A stretch of 64,000 nucleotides of DNA from Candidatus Omnitrophota bacterium (GTDB taxonomy: Bacteria > Omnitrophota > Omnitrophia > Omnitrophales > Aquincolibacteriaceae). Position 1 is the stretch's first letter, and every line of letters starts with the position of its first letter. Location: the NCBI GenBank assembly GCA_043821445.1, contig JBDRCT010000031.1, forward strand, positions 35,620 to 99,619, written 5' to 3'. The notes under the pieces were generated by a model that worked only from the letters and a program-made list of their open reading frames with translations, was not told the DNA's origin and ran no database searches. This document shows, piece after piece, positions 6,749-55,906 of this stretch. A program made the position numbers and the translations under genes.

Positions 6749-6834
6749 TATGACGTCCAAACTACCCTTTCGGAAAAGAAATGAAAAGTTTGGGCTGTTA
6801 TGATGCCCCGTTTATTTTTATATGAAGGAGAATC

Positions 6835-7149
6835 ATGAAAAAATGTCCGTTTTGCGCTGAAGAGATCCAGGATGAAGCCATTAAATGCAGGCATTGCGAT
6901 GAATTCCTTGCTGCGCGTCCGGAAGCGCCCAAAACTCCCTGGTACGGCAAAACCGCGGTCTTGATCGTCAGCTTTTTGACCGTGGGACCGTTCGCTTTGC
7001 CGCTCGTGTGGTTCAATCCGACGTATAGCCGCCTCAAAAAGATCATTGTGACCGTGATCGTGCTGACGCTGACCGGCGTTCTTGTTGCGGCGGCCCTCAA
7101 CGCCGTCAAGACGATCTACGGTTATTACAAGCAGGCAGGTGTTTTTTAA
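6835..7149 (+). CDS. Zinc-ribbon membrane protein
   Basis: MKKCPFCAEEI...CRHC zinc ribbon followed by two TM helices. RBS GAAGGAGAA. The same N-terminus is seen at 35238. Confidence 0.55.
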   Translation: MKKCPFCAEEIQDEAIKCRHCDEFLAARPEAPKTPWYGKTAVLIVSFLTVGPFALPLVWFNPTYSRLKKIIVTVIVLTLTGVLVAAALNAVKTIYGYYKQAGVF

Positions 7150-7559: not shown

Positions 7560-7719
7560 TACGTAAGCCTTTTTTAGCGTGACATGAGAATGGCCTGATT
7601 CAAAAAATCGGGTCATTTTTTTAAAGTATAGAAATAATCTTTAAGCCATAAAAACAGTGGTATGAGGAAACTTTTCTCTCCGGGGTGCTGTCTAAGGGGT
7701 CGAGGCCTGAGGTGTGAAC

Positions 7720-7805
7720 GATCCTTGTCTTCTGTTTCATTTCTTTGACGGTCGACAAGGATCGCCCCAATTTCATCTTTGATGAAATTGAAAGGAATTG
7801 GGACG
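7720..7805 (+). promoter_or_regulatory. Conserved structured 5' leader motif, copy a (P1 hairpin + GCCCCAATTTCA hairpin + AAAGGxATTGGGAC-ATG)
   Basis: P1 hairpin is GATCCTTGTC-N24-GACAAGGATC. It is followed by GCCCCAATTTCATC-TTTG-GATGAAATTG and AAAGGAATTGGGACG, immediately before the sigma-factor ATG. The same architecture recurs at 10994, 18083 and 55729 with compensatory stem changes. Confidence 0.6.
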
Positions 7806-8369
7806 ATGCAAGAGATTGAGCGGGAACTGATCATCCAAGCGGGGCAAGGAGAAATGAGGGCCTTCCGGGAGATCTATCAAAGGGTCTCCGGATATGTCTA
7901 CACCTTGGCTTATCGCGTCGTGAACACGAAGCATGACGCCGAGGAGGTGACGCAGGACGTGTTCCTCAAGATCCATCGCAGTCTTAGCTCCTTCAAATTT
8001 GAATCGTCCTTCAAGACCTGGCTTTACCGGATCGCGGTGAATACTGCTCTCAATCACGCTAAAAAAAGAAGCCGTGTGACGACACACGAAGTGGAAGAAA
8101 TTTTCGAGGATCCCGCGACCGTGACGCAACCCGATGCCGGGAAGCGTCTGGAAGCCGGAGAAACGGAGCATCGGCTTAAGATCCTTCTCGATCAACTGAA
8201 CCCGGACCAAAGGGCTTGTATCGTTCTCCGGGAGATCGAAGGACTGGATTACCAAGGGATTGCAAGCAGCCTGGGCATCAACATCAACACAGTCCGTTCG
8301 AGGCTCAAAAGAGCCCGTGAGACCTTGATGGCCCTCGGGCAAGAGGAGGTGGCGAGCCATGGAGTGTAA
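7806..8369 (+). CDS. RNA polymerase sigma-70 factor, ECF subfamily
   Basis: Region 2 (DAEEVTQDVFLKIHRSL...WLYRIAVNTALN) and region 4 helix-turn-helix (DYQGIASSLGININTVRSRLKRARE). ATG at 7806 chosen over the upstream in-frame ATG at 7779. Confidence 0.9.
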   Translation: MQEIERELIIQAGQGEMRAFREIYQRVSGYVYTLAYRVVNTKHDAEEVTQDVFLKIHRSLSSFKFESSFKTWLYRIAVNTALNHAKKRSRVTTHEVEEIFEDPATVTQPDAGKRLEAGETEHRLKILLDQLNPDQRACIVLREIEGLDYQGIASSLGININTVRSRLKRARETLMALGQEEVASHGV

Positions 8370-8877
8370 AAAAGTTCAGGAACAGCTCCTGACAGAATAT
8401 GGGGACCAAGAACTAGGTCCGGAAGAAAATGCCGAGGTTGAGCGGCATTTAACCGCGTGCCTGGATTGCCGGGAGTTTTTCGGGGCAGTCCAAAGAAGCG
8501 CCGTGATCCCTTTCAAAGAGGCCGGCGAAATGCAACCGGATAGCGCCCTTTGGCAGAGAATCCAGGAGAAGATCGAGGAGGAACAAGCGCGTTCCCGGAA
8601 TGGATTCTGGAAACTGGCGGACGTCTTAACACCCTTCTTGAGAATGCCGCAACCGATTTTTCGTGCGACATTTGTGACGGCTTTGATCCTGGTGACCGTG
8701 GTGCTCGCGAGATGGCCGGCCAGTTATGCAGATCCTGTCTACGGCTATCTCTCCGAGCAAATGACCTTCATGAGCGGGCTCAAGGCCGGGAATCCGGATT
8801 TCCTGAACGGCGGTTTGAAGGATTACGACGCAGTTTTTGAAGAAATAGACATGTCCCATTCTCCATCAAAAAAATGA
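8359..8877 (+). CDS. Putative zinc-finger (zf-HC2) anti-sigma factor
   Basis: Overlaps the sigma-gene stop. HLTACLDCREF matches the Hx3Cx2C anti-sigma motif. One TM helix. Confidence 0.7.
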   Translation: MECKKVQEQLLTEYGDQELGPEENAEVERHLTACLDCREFFGAVQRSAVIPFKEAGEMQPDSALWQRIQEKIEEEQARSRNGFWKLADVLTPFLRMPQPIFRATFVTALILVTVVLARWPASYADPVYGYLSEQMTFMSGLKAGNPDFLNGGLKDYDAVFEEIDMSHSPSKK

Positions 8878-8996
8878 AAGGTTAATGGGACTAGTCCCGG
8901 CAACCGTTGATAAAAAGAAAATAGAGGCCAGGGCATGTGATGGAACTTTATGTGAACGTGGGTTGTCTTACAAGACAGGAAAGGGAGGGTGTCAAA

Positions 8997-10877: not shown

Positions 10878-10990
10878 GTCGGATCTTCCATCTTTTTTAA
10901 CGCCCGGTGACGGACTCGGTGCCGGGCGTCAAAAAAATTCAGATGTAATGCCCGCTTCTCATACAACGCATTTTTTGCTATCATACCCGC
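10878..10990 (+). promoter_or_regulatory. Repeated intergenic unit, copy 3 (not followed by a fourth paralog)
   Basis: Same palindrome and a GATGTAATG box, but followed by the hrcA leader motif instead of another LTXXQ gene. Confidence 0.4.
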
Positions 10991-10993
10991 CCT

Positions 10994-11077
10994 GTCCCAA
11001 CTTTAAATTTCTTTTCATAAAGGATAGTTGGGATTGCCCCAATTTTCACTTCGTAAAAATTGAAAGGTATTGGGACT
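10994..11077 (+). promoter_or_regulatory. Conserved structured 5' leader motif, copy b (upstream of hrcA)
   Basis: P1 hairpin GTCCCAACT-N23-AGTTGGGAT. Then TGCCCCAATTTTCAC...TAAAAATTG hairpin and AAAGGTATTGGGACT immediately before the hrcA ATG. No CIRCE element seen. Confidence 0.6.
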
Positions 11078-11857
11078 ATGGAAACCCTATCCCCAAGACA
11101 GGACGACATCCTCCGGGGTGTCATTGAGACGCATATCGAGACCACTCAGCCGGTGGGTTCCCGTTCGATCGCCGAAAAATATGCTATTTCTTTTTCTCCC
11201 GCGACCATTCGTCATGAGATGGGCGCCTTGGAGGAGATGGGTTATTTGACGCATCCCCATATCTCGTCGGGCCGTTTGCCGACGGATCAGGGTTACCGTT
11301 ATTATCTGGACCATTCTTCATTCGAAGATCATTCCGGCGAGCCCCTGGGCCGTTTGGAGGAAGAGATCGTTCCTTCGGACAGGGAGGACAGGCTCGAGGA
11401 GTTCCTGGACCACGTTTCGCTCCTGCTTTCCTCGCTTTCTCAGGAGATCGGATTGACCCTCATGCCCTTTACGGAAGATCCGGCAGTTGAAAAGCCGGGC
11501 CGCATCAAGCTTTCTTTGCAAGGTTTGTCCTACATGCTCGAAAAACCGGAATTTCAAGATATCCGGAAGATCAGGAATCTGCTGGCCGTTTTTGAGGAAA
11601 AAGTGGCGCTGATGCGATGGGTCCTGACGCACGGGGATCCGCAACATGTATCTGTCTCCGTAGGCCGCGAACATTCGAACGAAGCCTTGGAAGATTGCGC
11701 CATTGTAACGGCCCGCTATACCGCGGGGAAAAACCGCCGGGGGGCCATCGCGATCCTGGGGCCCAAGCGCATGGCGTACCGGCAGATCATTCCTTTGGTC
11801 TCCCGCATGGCTATGACGGTGGGCGATATTCTTGAACACCGGGAGCTTAAGGCGTGA
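11078..11857 (+). CDS. hrcA: Heat-inducible transcription repressor HrcA
   Basis: Winged-helix N-terminus (LSPRQDDILRGVIETHIETTQPVGSRSIAEKY..ATIRHEMGALEEMGYLTHPHISSGRLPTDQGYRYY) and HrcA C-terminal domain. Confidence 0.9.
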   Translation: METLSPRQDDILRGVIETHIETTQPVGSRSIAEKYAISFSPATIRHEMGALEEMGYLTHPHISSGRLPTDQGYRYYLDHSSFEDHSGEPLGRLEEEIVPSDREDRLEEFLDHVSLLLSSLSQEIGLTLMPFTEDPAVEKPGRIKLSLQGLSYMLEKPEFQDIRKIRNLLAVFEEKVALMRWVLTHGDPQHVSVSVGREHSNEALEDCAIVTARYTAGKNRRGAIAILGPKRMAYRQIIPLVSRMAMTVGDILEHRELKA

Positions 11858-18082: not shown

Positions 18083-18165
18083 GCCCCAAACTTTTTATTG
18101 TTTTCTAAAAGGGCAGTTTGGGCAGCCCCAATTTCAACAGGGCTGAAATTGAAAGGTATTGGGAC
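18083..18165 (+). promoter_or_regulatory. Conserved structured 5' leader motif, copy c (upstream of an RHH gene and the giant gene)
   Basis: P1 hairpin GCCCCAAACT-N22-AGTTTGGGC. Then AGCCCCAATTTCAAC-agggc-TGAAATTG and AAAGGTATTGGGAC. The RHH ATG lies 35 nt downstream after GGAGGAAG. Confidence 0.6.
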
Positions 18166-18200
18166 AGGGAGAAATAAAAAAAGTTTTGAAGGAGGAAGCC

Positions 18201-18438: not shown

Positions 18439-21400
18439 ATGAAGCGTTCATTTTCATTTCCCCTCAGATGGGTTGCGTTTTGCATTGCGATGATCTTTGG
18501 CTGGAATCAGATCGTTTGGGCGGGGGAGATTCTTCCGCGGGATTACATCGTTCCTTCAGAACAGCCTGCCACTACGACGTCTGTTTCTGTCCCAGTCGTG
18601 TCGACAGGAGCGATGCCGGTTCAGATGCTGACGACAACGGATTTTTTAGCGAATAAGCGGGGGCCTTTATCTCCCGCAACTAAAGACACGTCTGAAATCA
18701 TTCCAAAGGCGGTCGCTTCTCCAAATACCGCTCGTTATGAATATGAGCGCTATGATTTTCAAGATACGCTTGATCTTTTGAGGCCTGAATTTGCAAGCGC
18801 TGTGATCGTGAAAGAGATCACGGCTGAGGATTTGAAGAAACTTTCCGAGCTGTCGTTTGAAACCGGCGTGATCGTATTGCATGGCGAAATCGTGCTCTTC
18901 ACCTCAGGGAGTGAAGATGAGATTGGCATGTTGTCCGCCGTTAAGATGCTCGCAGACCAAGCGACTTTTATTTCTCATACGCATCCAAGCATTTATTCTG
19001 CAGGAGGCCCGAGCGGTGGTGATATTAACGAAGCCGTTGCAGCACCGGGCGAGGAGTATGTGATCACGCATACCGGAGTTTATGCGTATAACAATGAAGG
19101 GATTTTGAATAATGGCGATTCCCATGGCTATGACTGGTATCTCGAAAAACTTAAGGAAGCCGTGGGGGCTTCAAAAGCGGAACAAGATCAAATTGAGGCG
19201 AGAAAGGATCTCAATGAATTTGTCACAGCTCAGGATGCGTATAACCGCGCCAAGGAAGATGAACGCGAGACCTTCCGGATGGGCGGCACGCTTTCTTATG
19301 CCTCAGGGCTGAAAACTTCGAACATTACGACTTTGTCCGGGAGCCCTTACCCCTACATAACAACCGGTTCAAGCGCTGGGACTGCACTTTCCTATGCCTC
19401 TTCTACCAGTCAATTTAATTTGAGTTATAACGTACCGGGCGCGAGCGACGTCTCGGGTTTTACAATCTCTTTTGATAATGCAAGCACTCCAACAATGGAG
19501 ACGCAGAACATCAGCATTCTTACCAATCTCGTGTTTGGGCTTAAGGGGCCGGCCACTTCGATCAAACTCGAAATCGTAGATATCAATAATGCAAAAGACA
19601 CATTCACGCTGACCGGCATCTCGAACAAAACAGAACGGTTCTGGCGAGTACCTGTCTCGGCGATCCTCAACACGATCGACAAAACCCGGATCACGCAACT
19701 GAATTTTATCATGACGCAGGCTAACACAACCTCGTCCAGAAGGACCGGCGTAATTTCAATCCGCTCCAAGGGCTTGAAAACGACTGCACCTTCTCAACCG
19801 GCTGTTACCTCAACGGTACCTGCTGCGACGAATCAAACAACCCTTCTGCTGTCGGGAACCAAAGAGGCGAACTCGGCCATTTTCATCAATGGCACACAAG
19901 TAGTAGCTCGTGACACTTCCACGACTTGGACATCTACCGTGAATCTTACAACCGAAGGAAATAATACCTTCAATATAACAGCCAAGAACTCCATCGGACT
20001 GGTAAGCACCGCGAAAACTGTAACAATTCAGCGGGATACGGTTGTCCCGACTGGTTCGATCAATATCAATTCGGGAGCCGCCTACACAGCCTCAGTCGCA
20101 GTGACTTTAGATCTTTCGTCAACTGATTCCGGAAGCGGAATCAGTACGATGAGTTTTTCGATGGATAATGTGACCTGGACCACGCCCGAAACTTATGCGG
20201 ATTCCAAGGCTTTTACGCTTCCAATCGGCGACGGTGATAAAACTGTTTATGTGAAGTACTACGATAAGGCTGGGAACGTCAGCGCCGTTTTTTCAAAGCA
20301 TATTCAATTGAGAGCAACCGGTCCGGTGGTTGTGATTGCGACTGGAACTCCGAGTCTGATCAAGGTAAAGACGCTCACGATCAATTACACGGTGGATGGC
20401 GTTGTGAAAGAAAAGACATTCACGGATCTTGCGGAAGGTGAAAACATGTTAACGATTACGGAACAGGATGAAGCTGGTAATGAAACATCCGTTAACTGGG
20501 CCGTGACTCTAGACACAATTCCCCCTGCGGTGGTGGTGACGAACGCTGTTCCGAGTCTGACGAATCAGGCCGCGCTCGTGGTGGATTACACAGCGGATGG
20601 CGTAGTGAAGCAGAAGACCTTCACACTTGCGGAAGGTGACAATGCAGGACTGACGATCAGGGAAGAAGATGCTGCGGGGAATGTTCGGATGATTACTTTA
20701 TCGAACATCGTGCTGGATACGGTGGCTCCGGTGATCGTGGTGACGAGCGCTGTTCCGAGTCTGACGAATCAGGCCGCGCTCGTGGTGGATTACACGGTGG
20801 ATGGCGTAGTGAAGCAGAAGACCTTCACGCTTGCGGAAGGTGACAATGCCGGCCTGACGATTACAGAAGAAGATACTGCGGGAAATGCTCAAACGATCAC
20901 GTTAGCGAATGTGGTGCTAGATACGGTGGCTCCGGTGATCGTGGTGACGAGCGCTGTTCCGAGCCTGACGAATCAGGCCGCGCTCGTGGTGGATTACACG
21001 GTGGATGGCGTAGTGAAGCAGAAGACCTTCATGCTTGCGGAAGGCGATAACACCGGCCTGACGATCACGGAAGAAGATGCCGCGACAAATTCAAGGACGG
21101 TCACCCTATCCAAGGTAATGCTGGATACAGTCCCCCCCGCGATCATGATCGATCCCGCAACGCCACATCTGATAAGTGTGAATACGTTCACTGTCAGCTA
21201 CACCGTAGATGGTGTGTCAAAACTAAAGACCTTTGCCAGTTTGGTAGAAGGTGAGAATGCGCTCACCGTCACAGAAACCGATCTTGCGGGGAACAGAACG
21301 ACCTTGACCCATAGTGTGACTTATACACCTCTCACGGCCATTGCCTTTCCTGTTCTTGAACTCCGTTCTCCGCAAATCGTTACAACACCCAATTATGAAT

Positions 21401-24400
21401 TAATTTATGCCGTGGACGGAACGGAAAAAAGAGAGACCTACGCTTTACAGGAGGGCGTAAATCTTCTTACGATCGAAGAGTCCAGCGCTGCCGGTAAAGT
21501 AATCGCACATTATCTGGTGGTGCTCAATGTAATTGCCGATCCTGTCTTTCCGGCGAATGAGACCGAACTCATTTTCAACCTGAACGGAACCGACGCCGCG
21601 CTTGTCGATCCAAACTTCGATGCTTCAGGATTGATCCAGGCGGGATGGATCAAATCCAAGGATAGGACTGCTTATCGGCTTTCCGGGGGACTGCTTGCGG
21701 AAGAATTCCGGTCCGATGGTACGCATATTTATTATGATTTCTTAGGACGCATTCATTCAAAAATAGACAAAAACAAAAAGATTACCAGCTATCAGTATAA
21801 GATCAATGCTACAGGCAACTTGTTAAGCGCTCATATTGAAGAAGGAAATAATCGGGTTGATCTGGATAGTAACGGTTTAATCCTCTTCTGGAAAAAAGGG
21901 GACGGAACAGAATTTTTCTTCGATTCCGGTCATTTGACCAAAATCAAAAAGGACGTGGTCGAATACCTCTATCAGCTCCGGCAAGTGGGCAGCGAATGGA
22001 TCTCGGAATCGATCGATCCTCTGCCTTTGGACTCTCCTTATCCTGCGTCGCTTCATTACACATCCGATTCGGTACTTTCCCGAACGGTGATGCCGGACGG
22101 GACCATTTATCAATATGATCTTTCGGGCGCGGTGACGCGCGTGGTGGATCCTGCCGGCAAAGAAACTCTTTATGATCCTGAGAAGGATCTGTTTGGCGCG
22201 TTCCATAGCTTTTCAGTGACCCGTGATGGTATTACAAGAATTTACGGCGAGCAAGGCAAGCTGACTCAATTGAAGGATGCGGACGGGACTGTTTTTACGA
22301 TCGATCAAGATAAGGTCGTAATGATCCAAAAACAGGAGGGCGCCTTATACCGGGACTTGGTTTATGACACGACTGGAACTCTTCAAAATGCCTTGGTGAA
22401 ACTGCCGGACGGAAGAGAACTTCTCATCGTCGGTCAGCAACTCACACAGATCAGGACGGTCGACGGAACGATCCTTGAAATCCAAAATGATAAACCGGCC
22501 AGGTCTTTGACCACAAACGGTCGCGTCTATCAGTACCGTGAGTCGACGGATGCAAACGGCAATCCCATTTTTATCGGTGACTTAACGGAATTTATCAACG
22601 ACAAAGGAAACCACATCTTTGTCGCAAACGGCCGGGTGAGCGGCATGGAAGAAACCCGTGGCAGTGTGTTGATCAAGACAGGATTTGCATACGATAACGC
22701 GGGAAGGATCGTCGAGGCCACGATCGATCAAGACGGTGTCCGGACCGCACGGTTCGTCTATGACTACCAAACTAGCGGAACCATTGTCACGAACAATGTG
22801 GGATCGATTCGTTATTACGACTCGTCCGGGACGCTCATGAAACTGATCACGCTCCGTGGGGAGGAGTACACGTTCAGCCAGATCACAGATCCAAGCGGAG
22901 CCGCCGGGTTCCTTCAAACCTTGATAAAAGTAGTCAACCAACTCGAAGGGACGATCGATTATGAGAACGGAAAACCGGTCCGGATCGTACGGCCGGACTC
23001 GATTGAAATGAAGGATATCGTTCTGAATCCCGACGATTCGCTTCTCAGCGCCGTTTTAATCTATCCCAGCGGGGCGGAAGGTCTTATCGAAGCGGGTGAA
23101 TTGAAACAGATCATCGAAACGGACGGCACGAAGAAAGAATATACGGCCGGTCTTCTTCGGAAGATCACTCGCCCCACTTTTGAAGCAACGAACTTCAGTT
23201 ATGCTTTTGATGTTTCGGGCAATCTCACTTCCGTCATCGTTCAGGACGGTTTAGGCTCCAGGACTTATACGACAGCAGGGATTCTGAGTTCTGCGGTCAA
23301 TCCGAGCGACGATATTTTTACCTATGATGCTTTGGGAAATTTGATCAAGGTCAAAACGAGCGCCAATGAAGAATTCAATTATTCAGGCCAGAATTTATCT
23401 TCCATCAAGTTTTCCACGGGGGAAATGCTGACCGGCATTGTTTTGAATGCGAACGGCAACCTTTCGGGAGGCACGTACGATCCCAAAGACGGTTCAATCT
23501 GGACGATCGCGGGCGGCGCGATAAGTCAGATCCGGGACGCAAGCGGGAATAATCTTTATTATTCAGGAGGGCGTGTCACTCAGATTGTTAAAATGAATGG
23601 CGACCGGATTACCTACAATACCTCCGGCCAGATCACTCAGATCACCTGGGCGGACGGTTCCTGCGCCCGTCAAATTACCACCAATTCTCAGGATGCATTG
23701 GTCAACGCGATCATTTATTCGCCCTCATTTGATAGCGCGGTGTTAAGCACTACGCTTTCCGGGATCGGGTCCATGGAAAGACCGCTGGTGAACGGAGTCC
23801 TTCAAACCCCCGGGTCGCAGGTCAGGACCGCGGGTAAGTTTTTTGACTTCAACGGGCTCTACTGGCGTGAAGTTAATTCGACCGCGTTACACGGAACGAC
23901 TCAGAATTACATCCGGGTCAAAATGACGGGTTCGAATTTCACGGTGAGTTTCTACGCCACGAATTACACGAACTCTCTTTTTAGTCAGCAAACCTATCAG
24001 TCCGCGGCAGGGTCTCCGTATGTCTACATCCCGCTTCCCGATCTTTCCGTAAAATATCTTTACGCGATCGAGATTTCCCCCAAAGGGAATGCCACGGTAG
24101 ATATCACGGACACTCCACTCGTTTTTTCGAGCGGGGACTATCAGCCCGTTGCATGGGTGAATACGGCCACCGCCTTTATAAATCAAAAAATAGTGCCGGG
24201 TTTTCCGGAAAGGATCACTGCGGCATTGTCCCAGAAAACGGCCTTGGAAAGCGCCTCTCAAGATTTTTCCGCTGCCGAAACCTTTAGTACGGTCAAAGTC
24301 AGCGATAGCCAATTCCAAATAGAAAGTCTCAAGAACGCGGTACTGCAAGCGCGACTGTCGCCGGATGCTGTTATCTCGGCCACTTATAACAGAGACACGA

Positions 24401-27400
24401 ACCTTCTTTTTACGGCCCACAGTGATCCTGCTTTTGATCCTGCGGCGGACGCAAACGGAGAATGGAAAAACTCGGTGTCCGGCTGGGAAGAGGATGGATT
24501 TGATTTTGCACCCGTCGTCACCGCGCCTTCCGGGGATGTGCCGCTTAAGATCGAATATGCCTCGAATGGCGGAAGCCAGACGGTGTCTTTTCAAAACGCA
24601 TCTCGGGCCATCTATCAAAACGATCGCATCGAGACCCTTATTACCCCGGAAGGGAAGACGGTTCATTACTCCTATGCCGCTGGGTCCAGTGATGTCGACC
24701 GGGTGATCTTCGACCCCGATCAAATCGACCCAGAAACGACCGAAGTGAAATACGAGTATGGAAAAATACGAGAGATTAGAAAAGCAGGGGCACTTGTCTA
24801 TCTTTACTCCTATGAATTTGACGATTTAGGGGACGAGATCACCGTGATCGAAGATACTGTAGAAAATCAGATCCGCCGGTTTTTGAAAGGAAAACTTATC
24901 TCGATAAGCAATTTAAATAGCGGCTTTAAGACGGTTTATGATTACGACGGCTCAGGCCGGATCGCGAAAGCAGTCACCTCCCGTTCGGGCCGCATCTTCG
25001 GCGCATTCGCTTATGCTTACTCCGGCGACGATACCCTGATCACCGAGGAAGCGACGGGTATTTCAAGGCGTTACGGCGCGGACGGGTTCCTGAAAGAATT
25101 GATCACGGCCAAAGATGAATTTTATAAATATTCCGTTCTTTCGGACGGACAAGCCGAGGACCTTCTGCTTCAGGAGCTCGTGAAGATCGTTACTTCCCGC
25201 GGCACGATCGAGTACAGCAGAGAAAAACCTGTTGAGATCACCGCCGCGGACGGTACCGTGATCAAAAACCTCATCGTCGAATCTTTCGTGGATGAAAATC
25301 ACATGACCCGCATGGTGATCCAACGAGCCGAAGTGCATTTGCCCGCTCCGGACGGAAGGATCGCCTTGATCGAAAAAGGGAAGGTGTTTTATATAAGCTC
25401 TCCGGGCGGAGAGATCCAGGAATTTGAGAATGGATTTTTGGAAAGACTGGTTAATGCCCAGGGTGAGATCACGGACCTCATTTACACGCGGAACGCCTCC
25501 GGGGAGATCGAATCGATCGGTGTAGAGGACAAGAACGGACTGAGGATTTATGACAGGAATGGACAATTGATTCGCGCGGTTCTGCCGGATACCACGCAGA
25601 TCGATTATGACGCGAGCGGCCAGTTGCTCCGGCTCCAGACTCCGGGCGGAGAAATATGGGGATATTCAGCGGGCAGTCTAAGTTCGATGACCTTGGCGGG
25701 GGGTGGCGGAAAAATCGAGCAGATTGTCTTAGATGCGTCAGGAAACGTGCAGTCCTGTGTTTACACTAAAGACGGCATCGTCACCACCATTCAAAACGGC
25801 GCCGTTGCCAGCAAAAAAACGTTGGATGGCACTCTTTTCATCTATGGCTCTTCCGGGAAAGTAGTTGAGATCCTGAAACCGGCGGGCGCGGGTTATGACC
25901 GGCTGATCTATGATGCGAACGGAGTCTTGACTTCCGTTGAACGCGCGGACGGTTCCCGTGCGCGTCAGATCACGGCCGATGCACAGGACACCTTGATCAA
26001 CGCGATCATTTACTCGCCCTTATTTGACGGTGCCGTGTTAAACGCAACGCTTCCCGGAATCGGGTCCAAGGAAAGACCTCTGGTGAACGGGGTCCTTCAA
26101 ACTCCCGGGTCGCAGGTCGGGACCGCCAACGAATTTTTTGACTTCAACGGGCTTTACTGGCGCAGTGTTAATTCAACCTCGTTGCACGGCGCGAATCAAA
26201 ATTATCTCCGGATCAAGATGATGGGTTCGAATTTTACGGTGAGTTTCTACTCCACCAATTACACGAACTCCCTCTTCAGTCAGCAAACTTATCAGTTTGT
26301 GGTCGAATCTCCGTATGTCTACATCCCGCTTTCCGATCTTTCCGTAAAATATCTTTATGCGATCGAGATTTCCCCCAAAGGGAATGTCGCGATGGATATC
26401 ACGGATACTCCGCTTGTTTTTTCGAGTGGGGATATGCCCGCTATGGATTGGACGGGGATCGCGAGCGGTTTTACGGATCAAAAAGACAGACCCGCAGTGC
26501 CGTCGATCATTAACGAGACTCTTTTTAAAAAAGCAGCTTTTGAGACCCAGGCCGCGGATCAATTCTTACTTCGGTCGCCGGACCAGCTTGATGAAGGCCA
26601 AGCTCAGACGTTCTACGATTCTGCTCTCGGCATCGTGAAGGGCGCGTTGCTTGAACCCGAAACGATCATTGCGGCGGCTTACCGGGCCTCTGACAGCACA
26701 CTCTTGATGGCTGCCCGTGCCAATAACACCGTGGCGCACTACGTCAACGGGCAGATCGACTATGTCACGGATCTGGACGGGAATTTGCTTATCGACCACG
26801 AGTATGACGCCGCTGGGGACCTGGTCGCGGTTCATCTCATGGATGCGAAGAAAAAATTAGAGGAGCAGATCATCGCTGCTCAGACGGAGGTCTCACGTCA
26901 GGAAACTGAGGCGCTGATGGCGCTTGCCGTTGAGCGCGGGCACGCGATCGAGGCGATCCAAAACAAATTGAATGAGGGCCTGGCTGCGATCAATGCCGAG
27001 CGGGAAAGGATCCGGCAGCTCAGTTCTCAGCGGGTCTGCCGCACAGTCCTGTTCTTTAAATCTTGCGAGAACGTTCAAGTCGATGTGAGCGCACCCCTTT
27101 CGGAACTCGATCAGATGGAGAAGGACCTTCGCGAAGAAACGGCCGTGGCGCTTGCCGGACTTGATGCCGTTGTGGCCCAGAAGAAAACAGAGATAGAAAC
27201 GGATGCCAAGGCGGCGTTTGTCGAATTAGAGAAGCAGCAGCTCACCACCTACCGCGAGATCCTGAAACAGGAATTAAGACCCGTTCTTTTCCATCACTAC
27301 CGGAAGATTCTCGGAAGAGATCCGTCCGAAGGCGAGATCGATACGTGGCTTAAGCGCGAGATCGGAGACGACCATGTGAGCCTCCTCTCATTTAAAGAGG

Positions 27401-30400
27401 CGGTCTCAGCCCGCGGGCTGAATTTTGCGGGGGCTTGGGTGGATCTTGACCAGTTGAAAGTCTTGTCAGGCTTGTCTCAAACCGGTGTTTTAGCCTCTCT
27501 CAAGGATGTCGGTTTTGTGATGGTGACGGACGTGAGCGGCGGGAATGTGACTTTTGTCCAACGGAGTCTCGGCAACCGGACCCAGGAACTGAAGATCGAG
27601 CTCGTGCCGTGGCTCGATGCGAACGGGGTGCCGATCCTGGATACCGGAGGGAATATCATTTGCGTCGAAAAATATGTCTTCGTTTCCAAGAATGACGGCT
27701 TCGGCGGCGAAGAAGTGACGGTGAGCGAGGACGAGTTCTTAAGCCGTTGGCTTAAAGAGAACAGCCTTAAGGGAGCGGTGTTCACCGATCAGCCGCTTGG
27801 GACGGGTTCCGTTCTTATGACGGACGAGGAGGCAAAGGCCATCTCCGGATTATCTTCCTGGGATATCCTTGTGGAATATTTCAAATCGGCGTTCGGGATC
27901 GATCCGGAGCGGGCCAACGTTCCGAAACTTATCAGAGAATTGAGCAGTAGTGAAGAATACAGTGTTCGTTTGGCGCAAGTGAACGCGATCAAAGCAGCGG
28001 TCCGGGATTTTCTGGACTTGTATCTCGCGTCGGACGAAGCGGGACGTTCCGCCAAGATCCAGTCTTTGGGCCTGGTCCCGGAAGAGGTCATTTCTATTAC
28101 ATCCCCGGAAATAGAAACGATCCTGGCCTGGCTCGATTCCCGCGACCTCCACTTCGGTCATTCCGCCTTTTTTGCGATCCAGCATTTGATCGAAGAAAAC
28201 AATGTTCAGGCGTCGCTTTTTGATATCGCCCGCGAAGCAATTCTAATCGATATCATGACGGGCGTGATCCATCCGCTCACGACCGGGGACCTGGAACTTT
28301 CCCTTTTTGCTCTCAACCGGGTTGCCAAAAACCGCGGCGTGCTCTTGACTCCCGCCAAAGTCACTTTCGAGGAACTCAAGCGCGAAGTCGTTCAAGGCAA
28401 GGGCGTTCTGGTTCATATGAACGGCAACCATTACGTCGTGGTGACCCAAATAGCACTCGCGGCCCGGACGGACGAAAATGGCGACCCTGTGCTGGATGAG
28501 CAAGGCGCTCCTGTCATGATCGAGGTCGTGACCTATATCGAAAAGAATGTGGGGCCGTCGGGCGAGGCGCAAACGCTCGCGCGGTCAGAATTTGAAAAGA
28601 TATGGATGGTGACCGCGGAGGGCGAGGGGATCGTGCTGACGCCGGCGGAAGTTTCGAACAACGCCACAATCATGACGGACCGGGAGACCCAGCAGATCAC
28701 GGGCGCGTTCTTCGGTTTTATCTTCGGGATCCTGAAGAAGATCTTTGATACCGTGATCCAGGTGGTGAAAGCTGTTTTTGAGGCTGTAAAGACGGTTTTG
28801 CGTTATGTCGTCGATCTTGTGGTCGATGTGGTCCGGGCTCTCACGGATTTCGTGTTGGAGCTCGGTAAAAGTCTCGTCTCGCTCGGGCAGTTCTTCTTTG
28901 AGGCCGTTCGTTTTGTCGGGGCCATTTTGAGCGGAGATCTGAACGGAGGGTTCCAGTCGCTCCAGCGGGCGCTCGGTCATTTCGGGAATTTCCTGTTCTT
29001 CGCCGCGGCGGTGGGTGGGTTCCTTGTGCCGGGGCTGGCCCCGCTTCAAGTGATCGGCTTCCAGGTCTTGAGCGTTGCCCTGAGCAAAGGGACCGGCGTC
29101 GTTCTGGATAAGATCGGGATCAAAAGCCCGGTAATCAAAAACCTGATCGGTAGTTTTATTACGGGCGGGGTCTTTGGCTTTGCCGGCGGTCAGATCGGAT
29201 CGGGGACCACGTTTTTAAACTCCGCATTGGCCAATCTTGCCATGTCGGGCGTCAATGAGCTTGCCCTGCATATCGGCCTTTCTCCTCCGATCGCGGCGAA
29301 CCTGGGTATTCTTGCGAGTATTATCACCGGCTCCGTGGAAGGCGGCGCAAGCCTCCCGGAAGCTTTCAAGACCGTCGCCCCGGACCTGATAAAAGAACTG
29401 ACCCTTTCCGGTGTATGGGCCCTCGGAACCTCCCTTGGCATCGACCCTCGTCTGACCTCGCTCATATCCCTGCCACTTGGAGCCGGTATCGGCGTTGGTT
29501 TTGACAGTTTACTTCACGCAAGCACGATCAATTTCGCCAGTCTTACGGCCGCTATCAAAAACGGTCTCGCCGCCGGTGCAAAATCGATCGGTTTCGATTT
29601 CGGGGGCGCGACAAGTCATCCGATTTTCGGTTCGCTTCTGAGTGGAAATATTTTAAGTTCTATCGGAAGCGCCATGGGGGACGGCAGCCTCTTCAGCGGC
29701 ATTCTGGATATTCTCAAAACGGCGGTCCTTATCCCGTTCAACGCCGCGAATGACATGGTCCAAATGACGCTTCAGGGGGTACGCAATTTTGATTCCTTGA
29801 TCCAGGAAAAAGGTCTTGCCGGAGCGCTGGAATCCCTGCTTACGTCCATATTCAGCCGCCAGACAATAGAAAAATTGTTAGGTTCCGGAGGCATTGGAGG
29901 ATTCGTCGGTTCTGTGGCAAAGATCCCCGCCACGCTCAACGGCCAAAGCGTTCTGGAACAGAAGTTCGACGGCACGACCTCTCTTTTTTATGACCTTGCG
30001 GGCAATTTTATCGGCAAAAAAGAGAATGGCGTCACGCAACTCGGCGCCTTTGGCTTCGATGTTGCCGGCAAATGGGCCCTTCTGGCCGGCCAGGTATTCG
30101 CGCCGCTTGCCGGTGGCTTGGCCTTTGCCGGAGAAGTGGCGGATGGTCAGCTCCGTAATGGAAAGGTCTATGATCCGAATGGCATTTTAGTCGGTACCCT
30201 GGATCCGGAAAAGGATGGCGAATTCATAGAAATCGACGGTCGCGATCCTCAAAATCCGGATTCCAATTCTTCCGGCAAATTCTGGTCCGGTATTTTTAAT
30301 CTTGCCACATTGGGACTGCAGTTCTTCTTCCAGGATGGAGTTTTGCGGAAGATCGAGTCCTCGGTTTCCAGCAACGCCGATGTGTCCAATTTGTTTAAAA

Positions 30401-31368
30401 GTAAATTTCTTTTTGGCAACGGGTTTAATAGCACAATGGTTCCCGAAGGAACACTAGATACGTTAATTCCGGCCTATAGCAACAACCTATTATTAGATGG
30501 TGTGATCAATTTAATGCAAACGTTAATGGTTTCCTTATACGAAACAACAGAGCTATTCGGAAATATGGGAGAGTGGGCGAGCGACTTCATCTACAGAATG
30601 GACGACAAGGATTTCTTTCAAAGCCTGCTTTCGGGGACCTTTACCGGAGTTCTCCCTGCTCTTTTTATGAACTGGCTCTTTCCCAATAATTTGGTCACGG
30701 AGGTTAGAAATAAACTCTTGGCCCTTGAAGATAGTCAGGGTTGTCTCGAAAAGGGGATCGCGTTCGCTCATTCAGGGTTTTTTGCCCCTCTTCTTGGCGT
30801 TTTAAGTGACACGCGTCCAGATGGCTCAAAATTTGATGTTCAGACTCTCATCAACTATGAAGGTCCTTATGTGGATTACAACGCATACATTGACAATCCT
30901 TATTTGAAACGTATTATCAACGTTTGGGGAACAGCTCCAACAATTTTCCCACCCCTAACAGGGCAGTGGACAGGGAATTACGTCATAGATCCTCGTTCGG
31001 GTGATTTGGTTCGAGAATTGGATCCAACGAAAAAGGATGTGCAGATCAGTGATTTTGGTCCACCGTTTATTGCTCCTGCGAATTTCACGGGGCTGGCGGA
31101 TATTGAGAATATCAATATCGAGATCATTGGAGCCCGGCACAATGACTTTGCGTATGATCCAATCGCTTGGAATATGGATCGCTATCTCCCTGAAGAACGT
31201 GCGAGAAAGATCAATCTCCTGACGAATCAATTTATGCGACAATTATATGGCGCCGTGGCACAAGATCAAGCCGAACCGGGTAAGTTGCTCTTATTCTTGC
31301 GAAACCATCCAAATGCCGAGCAAGACACCGTGACTGGGATTTGGCAAATTGATTTTGGCATAGCATGA
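18439..31368 (+). CDS. Giant secreted YD/RHS-repeat-like polymorphic-toxin-type protein (4309 aa)
   Basis: Uninterrupted 12.9 kb ORF. RBS GGAGA. Signal peptide. Ig-like repeat region (aa ~450-1000). Dozens of YDxxG(R/N)L YD-like repeats. Coiled coil. DUF4214-like YRKILGRDPSEGEIDTWL. C39-like GNHYVVV segment. A ~480-aa Gly-rich hydrophobic region. The last ~100 aa are homologous to the orphan cassette at 32396..32716. Stop overlaps the next gene's ATG (ATGA). Confidence 0.9.
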   Translation: MKRSFSFPLRWVAFCIAMIFGWNQIVWAGEILPRDYIVPSEQPATTTSVSVPVVSTGAMPVQMLTTTDFLANKRGPLSPATKDTSEIIPKAVASPNTARYEYERYDFQDTLDLLRPEFASAVIVKEITAEDLKKLSELSFETGVIVLHGEIVLFTSGSEDEIGMLSAVKMLADQATFISHTHPSIYSAGGPSGGDINEAVAAPGEEYVITHTGVYAYNNEGILNNGDSHGYDWYLEKLKEAVGASKAEQDQIEARKDLNEFVTAQDAYNRAKEDERETFRMGGTLSYASGLKTSNITTLSGSPYPYITTGSSAGTALSYASSTSQFNLSYNVPGASDVSGFTISFDNASTPTMETQNISILTNLVFGLKGPATSIKLEIVDINNAKDTFTLTGISNKTERFWRVPVSAILNTIDKTRITQLNFIMTQANTTSSRRTGVISIRSKGLKTTAPSQPAVTSTVPAATNQTTLLLSGTKEANSAIFINGTQVVARDTSTTWTSTVNLTTEGNNTFNITAKNSIGLVSTAKTVTIQRDTVVPTGSININSGAAYTASVAVTLDLSSTDSGSGISTMSFSMDNVTWTTPETYADSKAFTLPIGDGDKTVYVKYYDKAGNVSAVFSKHIQLRATGPVVVIATGTPSLIKVKTLTINYTVDGVVKEKTFTDLAEGENMLTITEQDEAGNETSVNWAVTLDTIPPAVVVTNAVPSLTNQAALVVDYTADGVVKQKTFTLAEGDNAGLTIREEDAAGNVRMITLSNIVLDTVAPVIVVTSAVPSLTNQAALVVDYTVDGVVKQKTFTLAEGDNAGLTITEEDTAGNAQTITLANVVLDTVAPVIVVTSAVPSLTNQAALVVDYTVDGVVKQKTFMLAEGDNTGLTITEEDAATNSRTVTLSKVMLDTVPPAIMIDPATPHLISVNTFTVSYTVDGVSKLKTFASLVEGENALTVTETDLAGNRTTLTHSVTYTPLTAIAFPVLELRSPQIVTTPNYELIYAVDGTEKRETYALQEGVNLLTIEESSAAGKVIAHYLVVLNVIADPVFPANETELIFNLNGTDAALVDPNFDASGLIQAGWIKSKDRTAYRLSGGLLAEEFRSDGTHIYYDFLGRIHSKIDKNKKITSYQYKINATGNLLSAHIEEGNNRVDLDSNGLILFWKKGDGTEFFFDSGHLTKIKKDVVEYLYQLRQVGSEWISESIDPLPLDSPYPASLHYTSDSVLSRTVMPDGTIYQYDLSGAVTRVVDPAGKETLYDPEKDLFGAFHSFSVTRDGITRIYGEQGKLTQLKDADGTVFTIDQDKVVMIQKQEGALYRDLVYDTTGTLQNALVKLPDGRELLIVGQQLTQIRTVDGTILEIQNDKPARSLTTNGRVYQYRESTDANGNPIFIGDLTEFINDKGNHIFVANGRVSGMEETRGSVLIKTGFAYDNAGRIVEATIDQDGVRTARFVYDYQTSGTIVTNNVGSIRYYDSSGTLMKLITLRGEEYTFSQITDPSGAAGFLQTLIKVVNQLEGTIDYENGKPVRIVRPDSIEMKDIVLNPDDSLLSAVLIYPSGAEGLIEAGELKQIIETDGTKKEYTAGLLRKITRPTFEATNFSYAFDVSGNLTSVIVQDGLGSRTYTTAGILSSAVNPSDDIFTYDALGNLIKVKTSANEEFNYSGQNLSSIKFSTGEMLTGIVLNANGNLSGGTYDPKDGSIWTIAGGAISQIRDASGNNLYYSGGRVTQIVKMNGDRITYNTSGQITQITWADGSCARQITTNSQDALVNAIIYSPSFDSAVLSTTLSGIGSMERPLVNGVLQTPGSQVRTAGKFFDFNGLYWREVNSTALHGTTQNYIRVKMTGSNFTVSFYATNYTNSLFSQQTYQSAAGSPYVYIPLPDLSVKYLYAIEISPKGNATVDITDTPLVFSSGDYQPVAWVNTATAFINQKIVPGFPERITAALSQKTALESASQDFSAAETFSTVKVSDSQFQIESLKNAVLQARLSPDAVISATYNRDTNLLFTAHSDPAFDPAADANGEWKNSVSGWEEDGFDFAPVVTAPSGDVPLKIEYASNGGSQTVSFQNASRAIYQNDRIETLITPEGKTVHYSYAAGSSDVDRVIFDPDQIDPETTEVKYEYGKIREIRKAGALVYLYSYEFDDLGDEITVIEDTVENQIRRFLKGKLISISNLNSGFKTVYDYDGSGRIAKAVTSRSGRIFGAFAYAYSGDDTLITEEATGISRRYGADGFLKELITAKDEFYKYSVLSDGQAEDLLLQELVKIVTSRGTIEYSREKPVEITAADGTVIKNLIVESFVDENHMTRMVIQRAEVHLPAPDGRIALIEKGKVFYISSPGGEIQEFENGFLERLVNAQGEITDLIYTRNASGEIESIGVEDKNGLRIYDRNGQLIRAVLPDTTQIDYDASGQLLRLQTPGGEIWGYSAGSLSSMTLAGGGGKIEQIVLDASGNVQSCVYTKDGIVTTIQNGAVASKKTLDGTLFIYGSSGKVVEILKPAGAGYDRLIYDANGVLTSVERADGSRARQITADAQDTLINAIIYSPLFDGAVLNATLPGIGSKERPLVNGVLQTPGSQVGTANEFFDFNGLYWRSVNSTSLHGANQNYLRIKMMGSNFTVSFYSTNYTNSLFSQQTYQFVVESPYVYIPLSDLSVKYLYAIEISPKGNVAMDITDTPLVFSSGDMPAMDWTGIASGFTDQKDRPAVPSIINETLFKKAAFETQAADQFLLRSPDQLDEGQAQTFYDSALGIVKGALLEPETIIAAAYRASDSTLLMAARANNTVAHYVNGQIDYVTDLDGNLLIDHEYDAAGDLVAVHLMDAKKKLEEQIIAAQTEVSRQETEALMALAVERGHAIEAIQNKLNEGLAAINAERERIRQLSSQRVCRTVLFFKSCENVQVDVSAPLSELDQMEKDLREETAVALAGLDAVVAQKKTEIETDAKAAFVELEKQQLTTYREILKQELRPVLFHHYRKILGRDPSEGEIDTWLKREIGDDHVSLLSFKEAVSARGLNFAGAWVDLDQLKVLSGLSQTGVLASLKDVGFVMVTDVSGGNVTFVQRSLGNRTQELKIELVPWLDANGVPILDTGGNIICVEKYVFVSKNDGFGGEEVTVSEDEFLSRWLKENSLKGAVFTDQPLGTGSVLMTDEEAKAISGLSSWDILVEYFKSAFGIDPERANVPKLIRELSSSEEYSVRLAQVNAIKAAVRDFLDLYLASDEAGRSAKIQSLGLVPEEVISITSPEIETILAWLDSRDLHFGHSAFFAIQHLIEENNVQASLFDIAREAILIDIMTGVIHPLTTGDLELSLFALNRVAKNRGVLLTPAKVTFEELKREVVQGKGVLVHMNGNHYVVVTQIALAARTDENGDPVLDEQGAPVMIEVVTYIEKNVGPSGEAQTLARSEFEKIWMVTAEGEGIVLTPAEVSNNATIMTDRETQQITGAFFGFIFGILKKIFDTVIQVVKAVFEAVKTVLRYVVDLVVDVVRALTDFVLELGKSLVSLGQFFFEAVRFVGAILSGDLNGGFQSLQRALGHFGNFLFFAAAVGGFLVPGLAPLQVIGFQVLSVALSKGTGVVLDKIGIKSPVIKNLIGSFITGGVFGFAGGQIGSGTTFLNSALANLAMSGVNELALHIGLSPPIAANLGILASIITGSVEGGASLPEAFKTVAPDLIKELTLSGVWALGTSLGIDPRLTSLISLPLGAGIGVGFDSLLHASTINFASLTAAIKNGLAAGAKSIGFDFGGATSHPIFGSLLSGNILSSIGSAMGDGSLFSGILDILKTAVLIPFNAANDMVQMTLQGVRNFDSLIQEKGLAGALESLLTSIFSRQTIEKLLGSGGIGGFVGSVAKIPATLNGQSVLEQKFDGTTSLFYDLAGNFIGKKENGVTQLGAFGFDVAGKWALLAGQVFAPLAGGLAFAGEVADGQLRNGKVYDPNGILVGTLDPEKDGEFIEIDGRDPQNPDSNSSGKFWSGIFNLATLGLQFFFQDGVLRKIESSVSSNADVSNLFKSKFLFGNGFNSTMVPEGTLDTLIPAYSNNLLLDGVINLMQTLMVSLYETTELFGNMGEWASDFIYRMDDKDFFQSLLSGTFTGVLPALFMNWLFPNNLVTEVRNKLLALEDSQGCLEKGIAFAHSGFFAPLLGVLSDTRPDGSKFDVQTLINYEGPYVDYNAYIDNPYLKRIINVWGTAPTIFPPLTGQWTGNYVIDPRSGDLVRELDPTKKDVQISDFGPPFIAPANFTGLADIENINIEIIGARHNDFAYDPIAWNMDRYLPEERARKINLLTNQFMRQLYGAVAQDQAEPGKLLLFLRNHPNAEQDTVTGIWQIDFGIA
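20519..21150 (+). repeat. Tandem 210-nt (70-aa) near-identical coding repeats within the giant gene
   Basis: Three almost identical copies (VAPVIVVTSAVPSLTNQAALVVDYTVDGVVKQKTFTLAEGDNAGLTITEED...) plus more divergent flanking copies from ~20320 to ~21540. Confidence 0.85.
23641..24140 (+). repeat. Internal ~500-nt segmental duplication in the giant gene (copy 1)
   Basis: ITWADGSCARQITTNSQDALVNAIIYSP...SVKYLYAIEISPKGN...PLVFSSGD is repeated at 25936..26435 (about 80% nt identity). Confidence 0.85.
25936..26435 (+). repeat. Internal ~500-nt segmental duplication in the giant gene (copy 2)
   Basis: VERADGSRARQITADAQDTLINAIIYSP...SVKYLYAIEISPKGN...PLVFSSGD. Confidence 0.85.
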
Positions 31369-50305: not shown

Positions 50306-50466
50306 CACCGCATAGTATTTTAAATGAGGGGTATGCGGTACAGCGCTTGATTTTCATTAATAAAAAATGATCAGAAATCAGTGCAGTCCAAGTCACCATT
50401 CATGAAAAGAAATAAAGACTTGGGCAGTACTTTTAACCCTTAAAATGAAATGGAGAAAAGTACTCG

Positions 50467-55447: not shown

Positions 55448-55728
55448 GGCGCATTCTACCCCGCATTTCTCATTCCGATAAAGAGAAATGCGCGCGAAGC
55501 GATGGAGTGCAAATCAGTTTTATCATTTGCGCTCCGGGGGTTGTCTTTTGAGGGCTGCAGGAGGCAGTGCCTCAAAACTTTGTCCGTAATCTGTTTCGGC
55601 AAAGCGGTTTTCTCATGGATCATGATAAATCCATGAGAAAGCCGGGCTAGCGGTATTTCGCCCCTTGCCCTCTATTTTTTAAAGGGTTGACATACTGATC
55701 TTGTTCGAAATCAATGGTGATCAGTATA

Positions 55729-55813
55729 GTCCCAACCACCTTTGAGTTTTTACAAGGTTGGGACAAGGGCGGCCCCAATTTCAACGAGTTGAAATTGATA
55801 GGTATTGGGACCG
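55729..55813 (+). promoter_or_regulatory. Conserved structured 5' leader motif, copy d
   Basis: P1 hairpin GTCCCAACC-N18-GGTTGGGAC. Then GGCCCCAATTTCAAC-GA-GTTGAAATTG (perfect 10-bp stem) and ATAGGTATTGGGACC. Followed by a 23-codon uORF (55821..55892) and then the rlmH ORF. Confidence 0.6.
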
Positions 55814-55906
55814 AACGCGATGAGAAGAAAAATTATTGAAGAAACGGCTAAAAAGTTGATACTAGCACTGCGTTACCATTCATTTAAATGAGGAGCGTCC
55901 CATTTT

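Follow-up and report, generated by a model that had tools for sequence, protein, structure and literature searches.

Insertion sequences of the IS200/IS605 family and the palindrome-associated transposable elements (PATEs), which contain no open reading frame (ORF), carry hairpins at both ends without inverted repeats and are excised seamlessly, and IS200/IS605 elements insert 3' of a short sequence that is read by a guide at the foot of the hairpin (PMC7290912, PMC3597680). Repetitive extragenic palindromes (REPs) and bacterial interspersed mosaic elements (BIMEs) are highly repeated hairpins of transcribed intergenic regions, arranged in mosaic clusters; their movement has been attributed to an HUH enzyme with single strands as its substrate (PMC3333891). 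Here we compare with these systems a motif of about 85 nt that is present in four copies (c1 to c4) in a 64,000-nt stretch of a Candidatus Omnitrophota genome (assembly GCA_043821445.1, contig JBDRCT010000031.1, positions 35,620 to 99,619; hereafter the window), and that a first reading, made from the sequence only, had described as a structured leader. We refer to the motif as the unit and to its two hairpins as P1 and P2. It is very probably a lineage-specific, modular, non-coding dispersed mobile repeat of Candidatus Omnitrophota, whose units are gained or lost precisely, directly 3' of a triplet C-X-Y. The kind of element is known and the repeat family itself is undescribed; PATEs and REPs come nearest to it, without a full match to either definition. 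Little has been written on the non-coding DNA of the uncultivated Omnitrophota, and our literature search found no published description of Omnitrophota repeats or of repeats that regenerate a start codon.

P1 consists of a stem of 7–11 bp of free sequence and a T-rich, conserved loop of 18–24 nt. A 3-nt internal triplet separates it from P2, which is closed by CCC/GGG and has a 9-nt bulge, A(A/T)AGG(T/A)ATT, and the 85-nt unit, which contains no ORF, ends with GGGAC plus a terminal triplet C-X-Y. All four window copies lie on the + strand at the places where the sequence-only reading had put them, and they share the tail A(A/T)AGG(T/A)ATTGGGAC; the core CCCAATTT-N(8-18)-AAATTG occurs four times in the window against 0.02 expected, and AGGWATTGGGAC four times against 0.58. 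In c1 (7722..7806, 85 nt, covariance-model score 89 bits) the P1 stem is formed by 7720–7729 and 7754–7763, the internal triplet TCG by 7762–7764 and the P2 stem by 7768–7777 and 7781–7790, followed by the bulge AAAGGAATT (7791–7799) and GGGAC (7800–7804); the terminal A (7806) is base 1 of the ATG of an extracytoplasmic function (ECF) sigma factor gene. c2 (10995..11078, 84 nt, 95 bits) ends in the same way on the hrcA start codon, its terminal A (11078) being base 1 of the ATG. The claim that each copy ends exactly at a gene start and is placed over the ribosome-binding site holds for these two copies only, as c3 (18084..18167, 84 nt, 77 bits; orthologous copy in locus L090) ends 33 nt 5' of a 66-codon ORF (ATG at 18201) that has its own GGAGG, and c4, an array (55692..55813, 62 bits; orthologous copies in L008 and L106), ends about 93 nt 5' of rlmH (55907) and 6 nt 5' of a 23-codon ORF (55820–55891). 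c3 and c4 are ordinary intergenic copies.

Both hairpins fold as had been proposed, with RNA and with single-stranded DNA parameters. Folding z-scores of c1, c2 and c4 range from -2.1 to -5.1, c3 alone folds no better than its shuffles, and the reverse strand folds about equally well. In an alignment of 78 non-redundant units, drawn from the window and related genomes, double-sided changes are seen in 10 of the 11 P1 pairs and in 5 of the 10 P2 pairs, the distal ones, and 91% of the paired cells are filled by pairs compared with 80% in shuffles and 22–47% when the partners are slid. The P1 stems fall into perfectly complementary types (CCCAAC/GTTGGG, CTTGTC/GACAAG, CTGAC/GTCAG, CCGAC/GTCGG, CAAAC/GTTTG and others), and P2 exists in at least two, CAATTTCAAC/GTTGAAATTG and CATCCCGCC/GGCGGGATG. 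The folded structure is under selection, and the compensatory changes first noted on four copies, with the conclusion drawn from them that the element is constrained by structure and is not a simple protein operator, are supported by this covariation.

Ten hrcA loci (protein identity 93% to 48%), in which the synteny of the ECF sigma, anti-sigma and CpxP-like genes and of hrcA-grpE-dnaJ is kept, allow empty and filled sites to be compared. The unit is absent at the hrcA start in seven of the ten orthologs, including the closest (L111, 93%), and this unit is present at two of eleven hrcA sites, those of the window and of L112 (84%). In L111 and the six other empty orthologs TATCATACCCGCCCTA is followed directly by TGGAAACC; the filled site of the window reads ...CCCTG[TCCCAAC...GGGACTA]TGGAAACC and that of L112 ...CCCTA[TCCCAAC...AGGACTA]TGGAAATC, with the unit in single square brackets. 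The point of insertion is therefore between CT(A/G) and TG, where the final A of the unit re-creates the ATG. In the orthologous comparisons the insertions are precise and measure 84–85 nt.

The unit-free hrcA genes (seven of the ten orthologs: L111, L113, L115, L116, L118, L119 and L120, at about 2470–2503) have the extended -10 sequence TGnTATCAT at a distance of 9 nt from the ATG, and their hrcA mRNA should therefore be leaderless. A consensus scan of the window finds a sigma-70-like promoter, TTCTCA-17-TATCAT with a TG extension, at 10956–10984 (+); it is conserved in nine of the ten orthologs and ends 10 nt 5' of c2, so that c2 would be essentially the whole 5' untranslated region (UTR) of an mRNA starting at the P1 foot. 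The controlling inverted repeat of chaperone expression (CIRCE), searched for as TTAGCACTC-N9-GAGTGCTAA with up to 3 mismatches, is absent across the window, and HrcA may therefore use another operator here. As a separate observation, L114 (2380–2500) carries at the hrcA start site, after CCCGCCCTG, an unrelated, hairpin-rich insertion of about 120 nt, with GTG as the start codon of the gene behind it; the same hrcA target may serve a second repeat family.

The start of the ECF sigma gene is filled in the window, L021 and L114 (three sites filled, two not). In L112 it is empty, with ...AAGGACTA followed directly by TGCAAGAG, and the L114 unit has a different P2 subtype. About 25 nt 5' of c1 lies a promoter-like sequence, GGAAAC ... 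GTCTAA (7666–7695, +), that looks like an autoregulated ECF-type promoter; because GGAA(A)C ... GTC(T/C)AA is conserved in the window, L021, L112 and L114, with or without the unit, c1 would lie inside the 5' UTR. Presence is not linked to relatedness, as hrcA is empty in L111 (93%) and filled in L112 (84%) and the sigma gene is empty in L112 and filled in L114 (73%), a pattern that points to repeated insertion at the same point or to precise excision. A longer element of about 390 nt (described below) contains three more polymorphic sites, where extra units or P1 doublets are present in some copies only, for example CCCTCCAG joined directly to TCCTCGC compared with CCCTCCAG[TCCTGAC...GGGACAG]TCCTCGC, and a LpxL-like gene is preceded by one unit in one and by three in the other of the loci L097 and L101.

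The sequence at which units insert is related to the units themselves. In 72 of 116 units the triplet on the 5' flank is identical to the terminal one (shuffled mean 32, maximum 44), and Y pairs with the internal triplet in 102 of the 116 (shuffled mean 83, maximum 92), the outer two bases both of the flank and of the end being those that pair with the internal triplet. The flank/internal/end classes include CTA/TTG/CTA (38 units), CCG/CGG/CCG (7), CGG/CCG/CGG (5), CAG/CAG/CAG (4) and CCA/TGG/CCA (4), and in the alignment column 57 covaries with column 10 (AU 37, GC 29) as well as with column 102 (UA 41, CG 29). Covariation with an internal site is not expected of a plain target-site duplication. 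Among the window copies, c1 has a flank triplet CGA (7719–7721) identical to its terminal CGA, c2 has CTG (10992–10994) on its 5' side compared with a terminal CTA, c3 has CAG as flank, internal and terminal triplet, and c4 ends in CCG.

One genome per species was scanned with a degenerate P2-half pattern, which gave among the matches listed more than 110 stretches in about 20 Candidatus Omnitrophota metagenome-assembled genomes (MAGs), with up to two dozen in a single MAG, and one chance match elsewhere. Profile searches of the 0.8 Mb fetched around these matches recovered 169 P1 and 169 P2 modules in 177 clusters, of which 87 are P1-P2, 34 P2-only and 27 P1-only, the remainder being tandem or mixed, up to three P1-P2 in a row. 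The arrays are mostly on one strand (A+B+, A+A+B+, A+B+A+B+), and mixed strands occur in 4 of the 177 clusters. Seven of 145 P2-containing clusters lie within called ORFs; those between co-directional genes are sense in 52 cases and antisense in 25, a further 17 lie between divergent and 8 between convergent genes, and once the copies fused to a start codon are removed about 36 sense clusters face 25 antisense ones, which is little bias. ORFs bracketed by modules are of the housekeeping kind (glycosyltransferases, Fic, LptF/G, HlyD, RecA, ADH, a tRNA methyltransferase, Nth and a TPR protein). A dispersed repeat of REP or MITE (miniature inverted-repeat transposable element) type, which the sequence-only reading had itself named as the finding that would speak against a leader, is thus essentially what these stretches, arrays and two orientations amount to. 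Such a repeat explains many of the 'conserved structured motifs' that genome scans in Omnitrophota would flag; the covariance model is ready for use in masking, and the presence/absence polymorphisms can serve as strain markers.

Tentatively, we propose that the mobility is of the hairpin-dependent, single-strand (HUH) type. By analogy, the unit would spread via a folded single strand as IS200/IS605-derived PATEs or REPs do, with the internal triplet as guide. Most copies are probably passengers in intergenic DNA, in either orientation. Like PATEs and IS608 with its 'peel and paste' mechanism, the unit is without an ORF, has a hairpin near each end and lacks general terminal inverted repeats; it also inserts 3' of a short sequence, holds at the foot of a hairpin a short internal sequence complementary, at its outer bases, to the flank and to its own end, and is gained and lost precisely. 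It differs from PATEs in being much shorter (85 nt), with one internal triplet that seems to serve both ends, in recognising 3 nt rather than 4–5 and tolerating a mismatch in the middle, in its large and conserved P1 loop, in its modularity with head-to-tail arrays, and in that no TnpA or TnpB was found for it in the fetched loci and a strand bias was not demonstrated. With REPs and BIMEs the unit shares stems that keep their complementarity while the sequence varies, and clustering in intergenic regions. A REP, however, is an imperfect palindrome of 30–40 nt with a conserved 5' GTAG, whereas the unit has no GTAG, a 5' context of C-X-Y followed by TCC or CCC, and hairpins of about 45 nt with 18–24-nt loops; its arrays are mainly head-to-tail and not inverted pairs of REP and inverse REP (iREP), and units are often found upstream of genes and on start codons, unlike REPs, which are mainly at the 3' ends of genes. 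The BOX elements of Streptococcus pneumoniae, composed of boxA, boxB in variable number and boxC, are predicted to fold into stable stem-loops, are often found near gene 5' ends and affect expression. They resemble the unit as modular intergenic repeats, with no relation in sequence, and to our knowledge neither start-codon fusion nor covariation of flank and internal site is known for them. We know of no hairpin- and guide-dependent integration system in Omnitrophota, and the relation between flank, internal triplet and end makes guide-dependent integration directly testable.

Several observations weigh against a mobile repeat of this kind. A tblastn search with an approximate IS200 TnpA query gave no match in the window and 110 loci (0.8 Mb), although RAYT-like enzymes would be missed by it; no RAYT gene turned up in the fetched loci, for which no RAYT query was used, and no P1...ORF...P2 arrangement, as expected of an autonomous parent, was found there. 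Hairpins of known IS200/IS605 and REP elements do not resemble P1 with its large, conserved loop. At the middle position of the triplet a mismatch with the internal triplet (T.T or A.A) is usual, and the shared 3 nt could be a target-site duplication, against which a single doublet insertion with unequal flank (CAG) and end (CTG) argues. The loci were collected with a P2-based pattern, which biases the conserved P2 positions by ascertainment, and the gene-context counts rest on genes called by a custom codon-usage caller and not a validated one. GC skew in unit orientation averages 0.004; since skew over 8-kb stretches follows the coding strand (Spearman rho 0.70), effects of replication strand and of gene orientation are inseparable, and GC skew alone is unusable for replication direction on short contigs of these genomes. 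Finally, c1 and its ortholog in L021 share about 90% identity, against 81–87% for the adjacent coding DNA, and a unit conserved at least as well as coding sequence makes a host-level function of non-fused copies possible.

The copies on start codons form a distinct group. A TG that opens an ORF abuts 20 of 81 units of the TA class, compared with an expectation of about 2.5% (p ~1e-14) derived from the 48 unit-free genes that start with CTATG and the 1856 CTA sites in intergenic DNA, so that start-codon junctions are about 10-fold over-represented, and the 20 copies span at least 15 gene families. GAAAGG outnumbers GATAGG 16 to 6 in fused copies, whereas the other copies have 9 and 89 (Fisher p = 3e-9), which suggests that GAAAGG in the fused copies reflects co-option as a ribosome-binding leader. 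Fused copies are retained in orthologs of different MAGs for seven gene families. The 22 fused genes share no function, and include those for an SDR, Trm112, PTS enzyme I, a flavin reductase, PlsC, an ECF sigma factor and a MetH-like protein as well as ribosomal protein L28, glycosyltransferases, RecX, Mfd, LpxL and HrcA.

These data can be accommodated by a mobile repeat if insertion at a target C-N-A/TG, with the slash marking the point of entry, lets the last A of the unit rebuild the ATG and shifts the old leader or leaderless start 85 nt upstream. The unit would then become the 5' UTR of the gene, which would survive thanks to its rebuilt ATG and to a weak Shine-Dalgarno-like sequence brought along by the unit. 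Selection would subsequently improve this sequence in the unpaired bulge (GATAGG to GAAAGG), and after decay of the old signals the unit could no longer be lost. That fused copies act as a functional leader is, on these grounds, probable. In the predicted folds AAAGG lies in the unpaired bulge 10 nt 5' of the ATG, and with the ribosome-binding sequence exposed in c1 and c2, constitutive initiation rather than a switch would be expected for both. If so, we have here a natural case of a mobile element replacing a translation-initiation region with the gene surviving, and hrcA would have passed from a leaderless mRNA to one with an 85-nt structured leader.

For the fused copies this account overlaps with a wider one, which we regard as possible but doubtful, namely that the unit is a host-domesticated RNA module that spread as mobile DNA and is now kept for its action on mRNA, its possible roles being a 5'-terminal stabilising hairpin, a U-rich loop recruiting ribosomal protein S1, an intergenic processing site or a site for a global RNA-binding protein. 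The start-codon enrichment with the adapted GAAAGG, the retention of fused copies across MAGs, the conservation of c1 relative to its coding neighbour and the conserved sequence of the P1 loop would all fit such a module, as would the hrcA promoter, which would place the transcription start only a few bases away from the P1 stem. The remaining copies fit less well, given that the non-fused ones show little bias of orientation and that half-modules and scrambled arrays are common. Selection on a + strand RNA should also leave a wobble signature, and this is absent: G.U pairs and A.C mismatches number 26 and 31 in P1 and 6 and 29 in P2, so nothing marks the + strand RNA as the selected molecule.

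An unlikely variant of the mobile repeat is a self-repairing single-strand transposon that prefers start codons of the form C-N-A/TG. The start codons of hrcA and of the sigma gene have been hit by different unit subtypes (window, L112, L114), and such recurrent, independent hits are, with the 10-fold excess, compatible with targeting, as is the unrelated 120-nt insertion of L114 at exactly that hrcA position; a ratchet of retention explains the recurrent hits and the excess equally well. If the preference were real, targeting could proceed via the DNA melted in open promoter complexes of leaderless genes, and the unit would be a portable translation-initiation region whose insertion rebuilds the ATG and supplies a ribosome-binding site. 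Leaderless and short-leader genes across the phylum would thereby gain one common structured 5' UTR that a host factor could regulate globally. We also considered a split promoter, in which the unit inserts in a -10 hexamer at TA/nnnT and contributes its own TTGAAA as the -35 element at 17 nt, and rejected it as a general rule for lack of enrichment: look-alikes exist (L005/L035 with TTGACA-16-TA/GAAT, L016/L034/L076 and L019), T occupies hexamer position 6 in 51–56%, and relative to 1793 control intergenic CTA sites the -35 score is 2.75 vs 2.46 (p = 0.10) and the -10 score 3.25 vs 3.30.

A classical DDE-transposase MITE, for which the shared 2–3 nt would be a target-site duplication and the hairpins incidental, is improbable. 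It would account for the (C)TA found on both sides of 65% of the units, for the precision of the insertions and for the inverted repeats TCCCAA.../...TTGGGA at the ends of the CCCAAC subtype, but the other P1 subtypes share only TCC/GGA at their ends, which leaves no general terminal inverted repeat. At least six classes of flank triplet covary with the internal triplet, the one insertion with a CAG flank and a CTG end lacks the identity expected of a duplication, and stems of free sequence in which pairing is kept point to selection on a folded strand. Elements comparable to the unit are the Correia elements of Neisseria (CREE/NEMIS), small, abundant and non-coding mobile repeats that insert at a TA-containing target, often 5' of genes, and alter expression signals. 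They have terminal inverted repeats of 25–26 bp, a TA duplication and promoter and IHF sites, whereas the unit lacks inverted repeats, its flank triplet covaries with the internal site and its regeneration of promoters is not significant.

The leader first proposed, a cis-regulatory RNA (riboswitch, thermometer or attenuator) with two exclusive folds by which translation of a stress regulon or another one would be controlled, is very improbable and as a general explanation largely refuted. What had suggested it is real: the stems covary strongly, c1 and c2 end at the start codons of the ECF sigma factor gene and hrcA, and CCCAAT has two possible downstream partners of the form ATTG(GG). The alternative CCCAAT/ATTGGG helix is possible with a core that is invariant in a sample selected on those very bases, and a divergent L112 unit has C to T at the shared CCCAAT position and G to A at both partners, a single instance in a sample ascertained on these bases; units with the second P2 subtype, CATCCCGCC/GGCGGGATG, retain little of this helix. 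The context is not that of a leader, since 25 of 77 co-directional clusters are antisense and 8 lie between convergent genes, tandem arrays and half-modules are common, the hrcA unit is missing from seven of ten orthologs in a patchy manner and G.U is no commoner than A.C on the + strand. The stress regulon dissolves in the same way, the fused genes being functionally incoherent, unrelated housekeeping genes with no stress theme.

Known thermometers make the difference clear. Like RNA thermometers and riboswitch leaders (ROSE, fourU), c2 is a structured 5' UTR over the ribosome-binding region of a heat-shock gene, but thermometers occlude the Shine-Dalgarno sequence or the AUG, and the unit leaves its Shine-Dalgarno-like sequence exposed; AAAGG is predicted to be unpaired in both alternative folds, with which an occlusion-type thermometer or attenuator is hard to reconcile. 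Thermometers are also kept at orthologous positions and in sense orientation only, whereas the unit is patchy and a third of its informative copies are antisense. At Rfam gathering thresholds the window and 17 loci gave no match, one tRNA aside, and a permissive scan of c2 had as its best hit DUF2815 RNA with 17.6 bits against 41.2 required (E = 0.45); there is no tRNA near the units. The remark of the sequence-only reading that it did not recognise a known riboswitch or leader therefore stands. That the units are double-stranded binding sites (palindromic operators or nucleoid-protein sites) of a global DNA-binding protein is hardly credible, for although many units repeat the half-sites CCCAA/TTGGG in P1 and in P2, P1 stems are swapped wholesale (CTTGTC, CTGAC, CCGAC, CAAAC and others) with pairing kept, which a sequence-specific binder would not tolerate, and elsewhere in the window TTGGGAY is about as frequent as expected (25 vs 24).

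A covariance-model search of the window, a check of the kind that the sequence-only reading had recommended, found further modules there. The count of four is accordingly right for full units and overlooks P1 modules on the minus strand as well as the extra P1 hairpin (55692–55727) that precedes the P1 hairpin (55729–55765) and the P2 module (55773–55813) of c4, all three on the + strand. The minus-strand modules are antisense passengers, namely an isolated P1 module at 6755–6798 (23 bits), about 40 nt 5' of a + strand gene that starts at 6835; two P1-like hairpins at 8850–8939 (23 bits), between the anti-sigma gene and the next + strand gene; and a P1 module followed by a second, weaker hairpin at 50367–50429 (29 bits), between two + strand genes. 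The last is a doublet of the type that is inserted polymorphically in other genomes.

The longer element mentioned above, of about 390 nt, is multi-copy, hairpin-rich and without an ORF, lies at unrelated sites in at least six Omnitrophota MAGs and is absent from the window. Copies are found at L055 7405–7800, L100 1–366, L017 2592–2969, L012 112–421 and L009 6246–6670, on the minus strand at L030 2981–3301, L069 6099–6438 and L053 5158–5455, and also in L024, L036, L065 and L075. One P1-P2 unit always occupies one fixed place inside it. No Rfam family corresponds to it; a larger, non-autonomous mobile element and a multi-copy RNA gene are both conceivable. Another composite repeat, in MAG nzgw336, has at least six copies (L006, L028, L031, L042, L086 and L102) in which conserved flanks, CTAATACCGTTCTCC..GATTC and AAGGGTTAACGGTA.., surround one unit. 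P2-type modules were also seen in long, high-scoring ORFs at L093 1131–1173 (minus strand), L011 3222–3265 and L061 6460–6503, the first in frame in an ORF of about 2500 aa with the translation ...QKLIGIGT...; either giant genes have received in-frame insertions here or the gene caller was in error.

Pfam identifies the window genes next to the units as the ECF sigma factor gene (7806–8369; Sigma70_r2/r4) with its zf-HC2 anti-sigma factor, HrcA (11078–11857) followed by GrpE, and RlmH (55907–56410). The 66-codon ORF after c3 is without a Pfam match and precedes the first of two giant ORFs, both on the + strand, which span 18439–31368 (4309 aa) and 56989–64000 (at least 2337 aa, running off the window). 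The 23-codon ORF after c4 (MRRKIIEETAKKLILALRYHSFK; 55820–55891, +) is conserved at the nucleotide level at the orthologous L008 locus (about 365–440) of another MAG; it may encode a genuine small protein or act as an upstream ORF.

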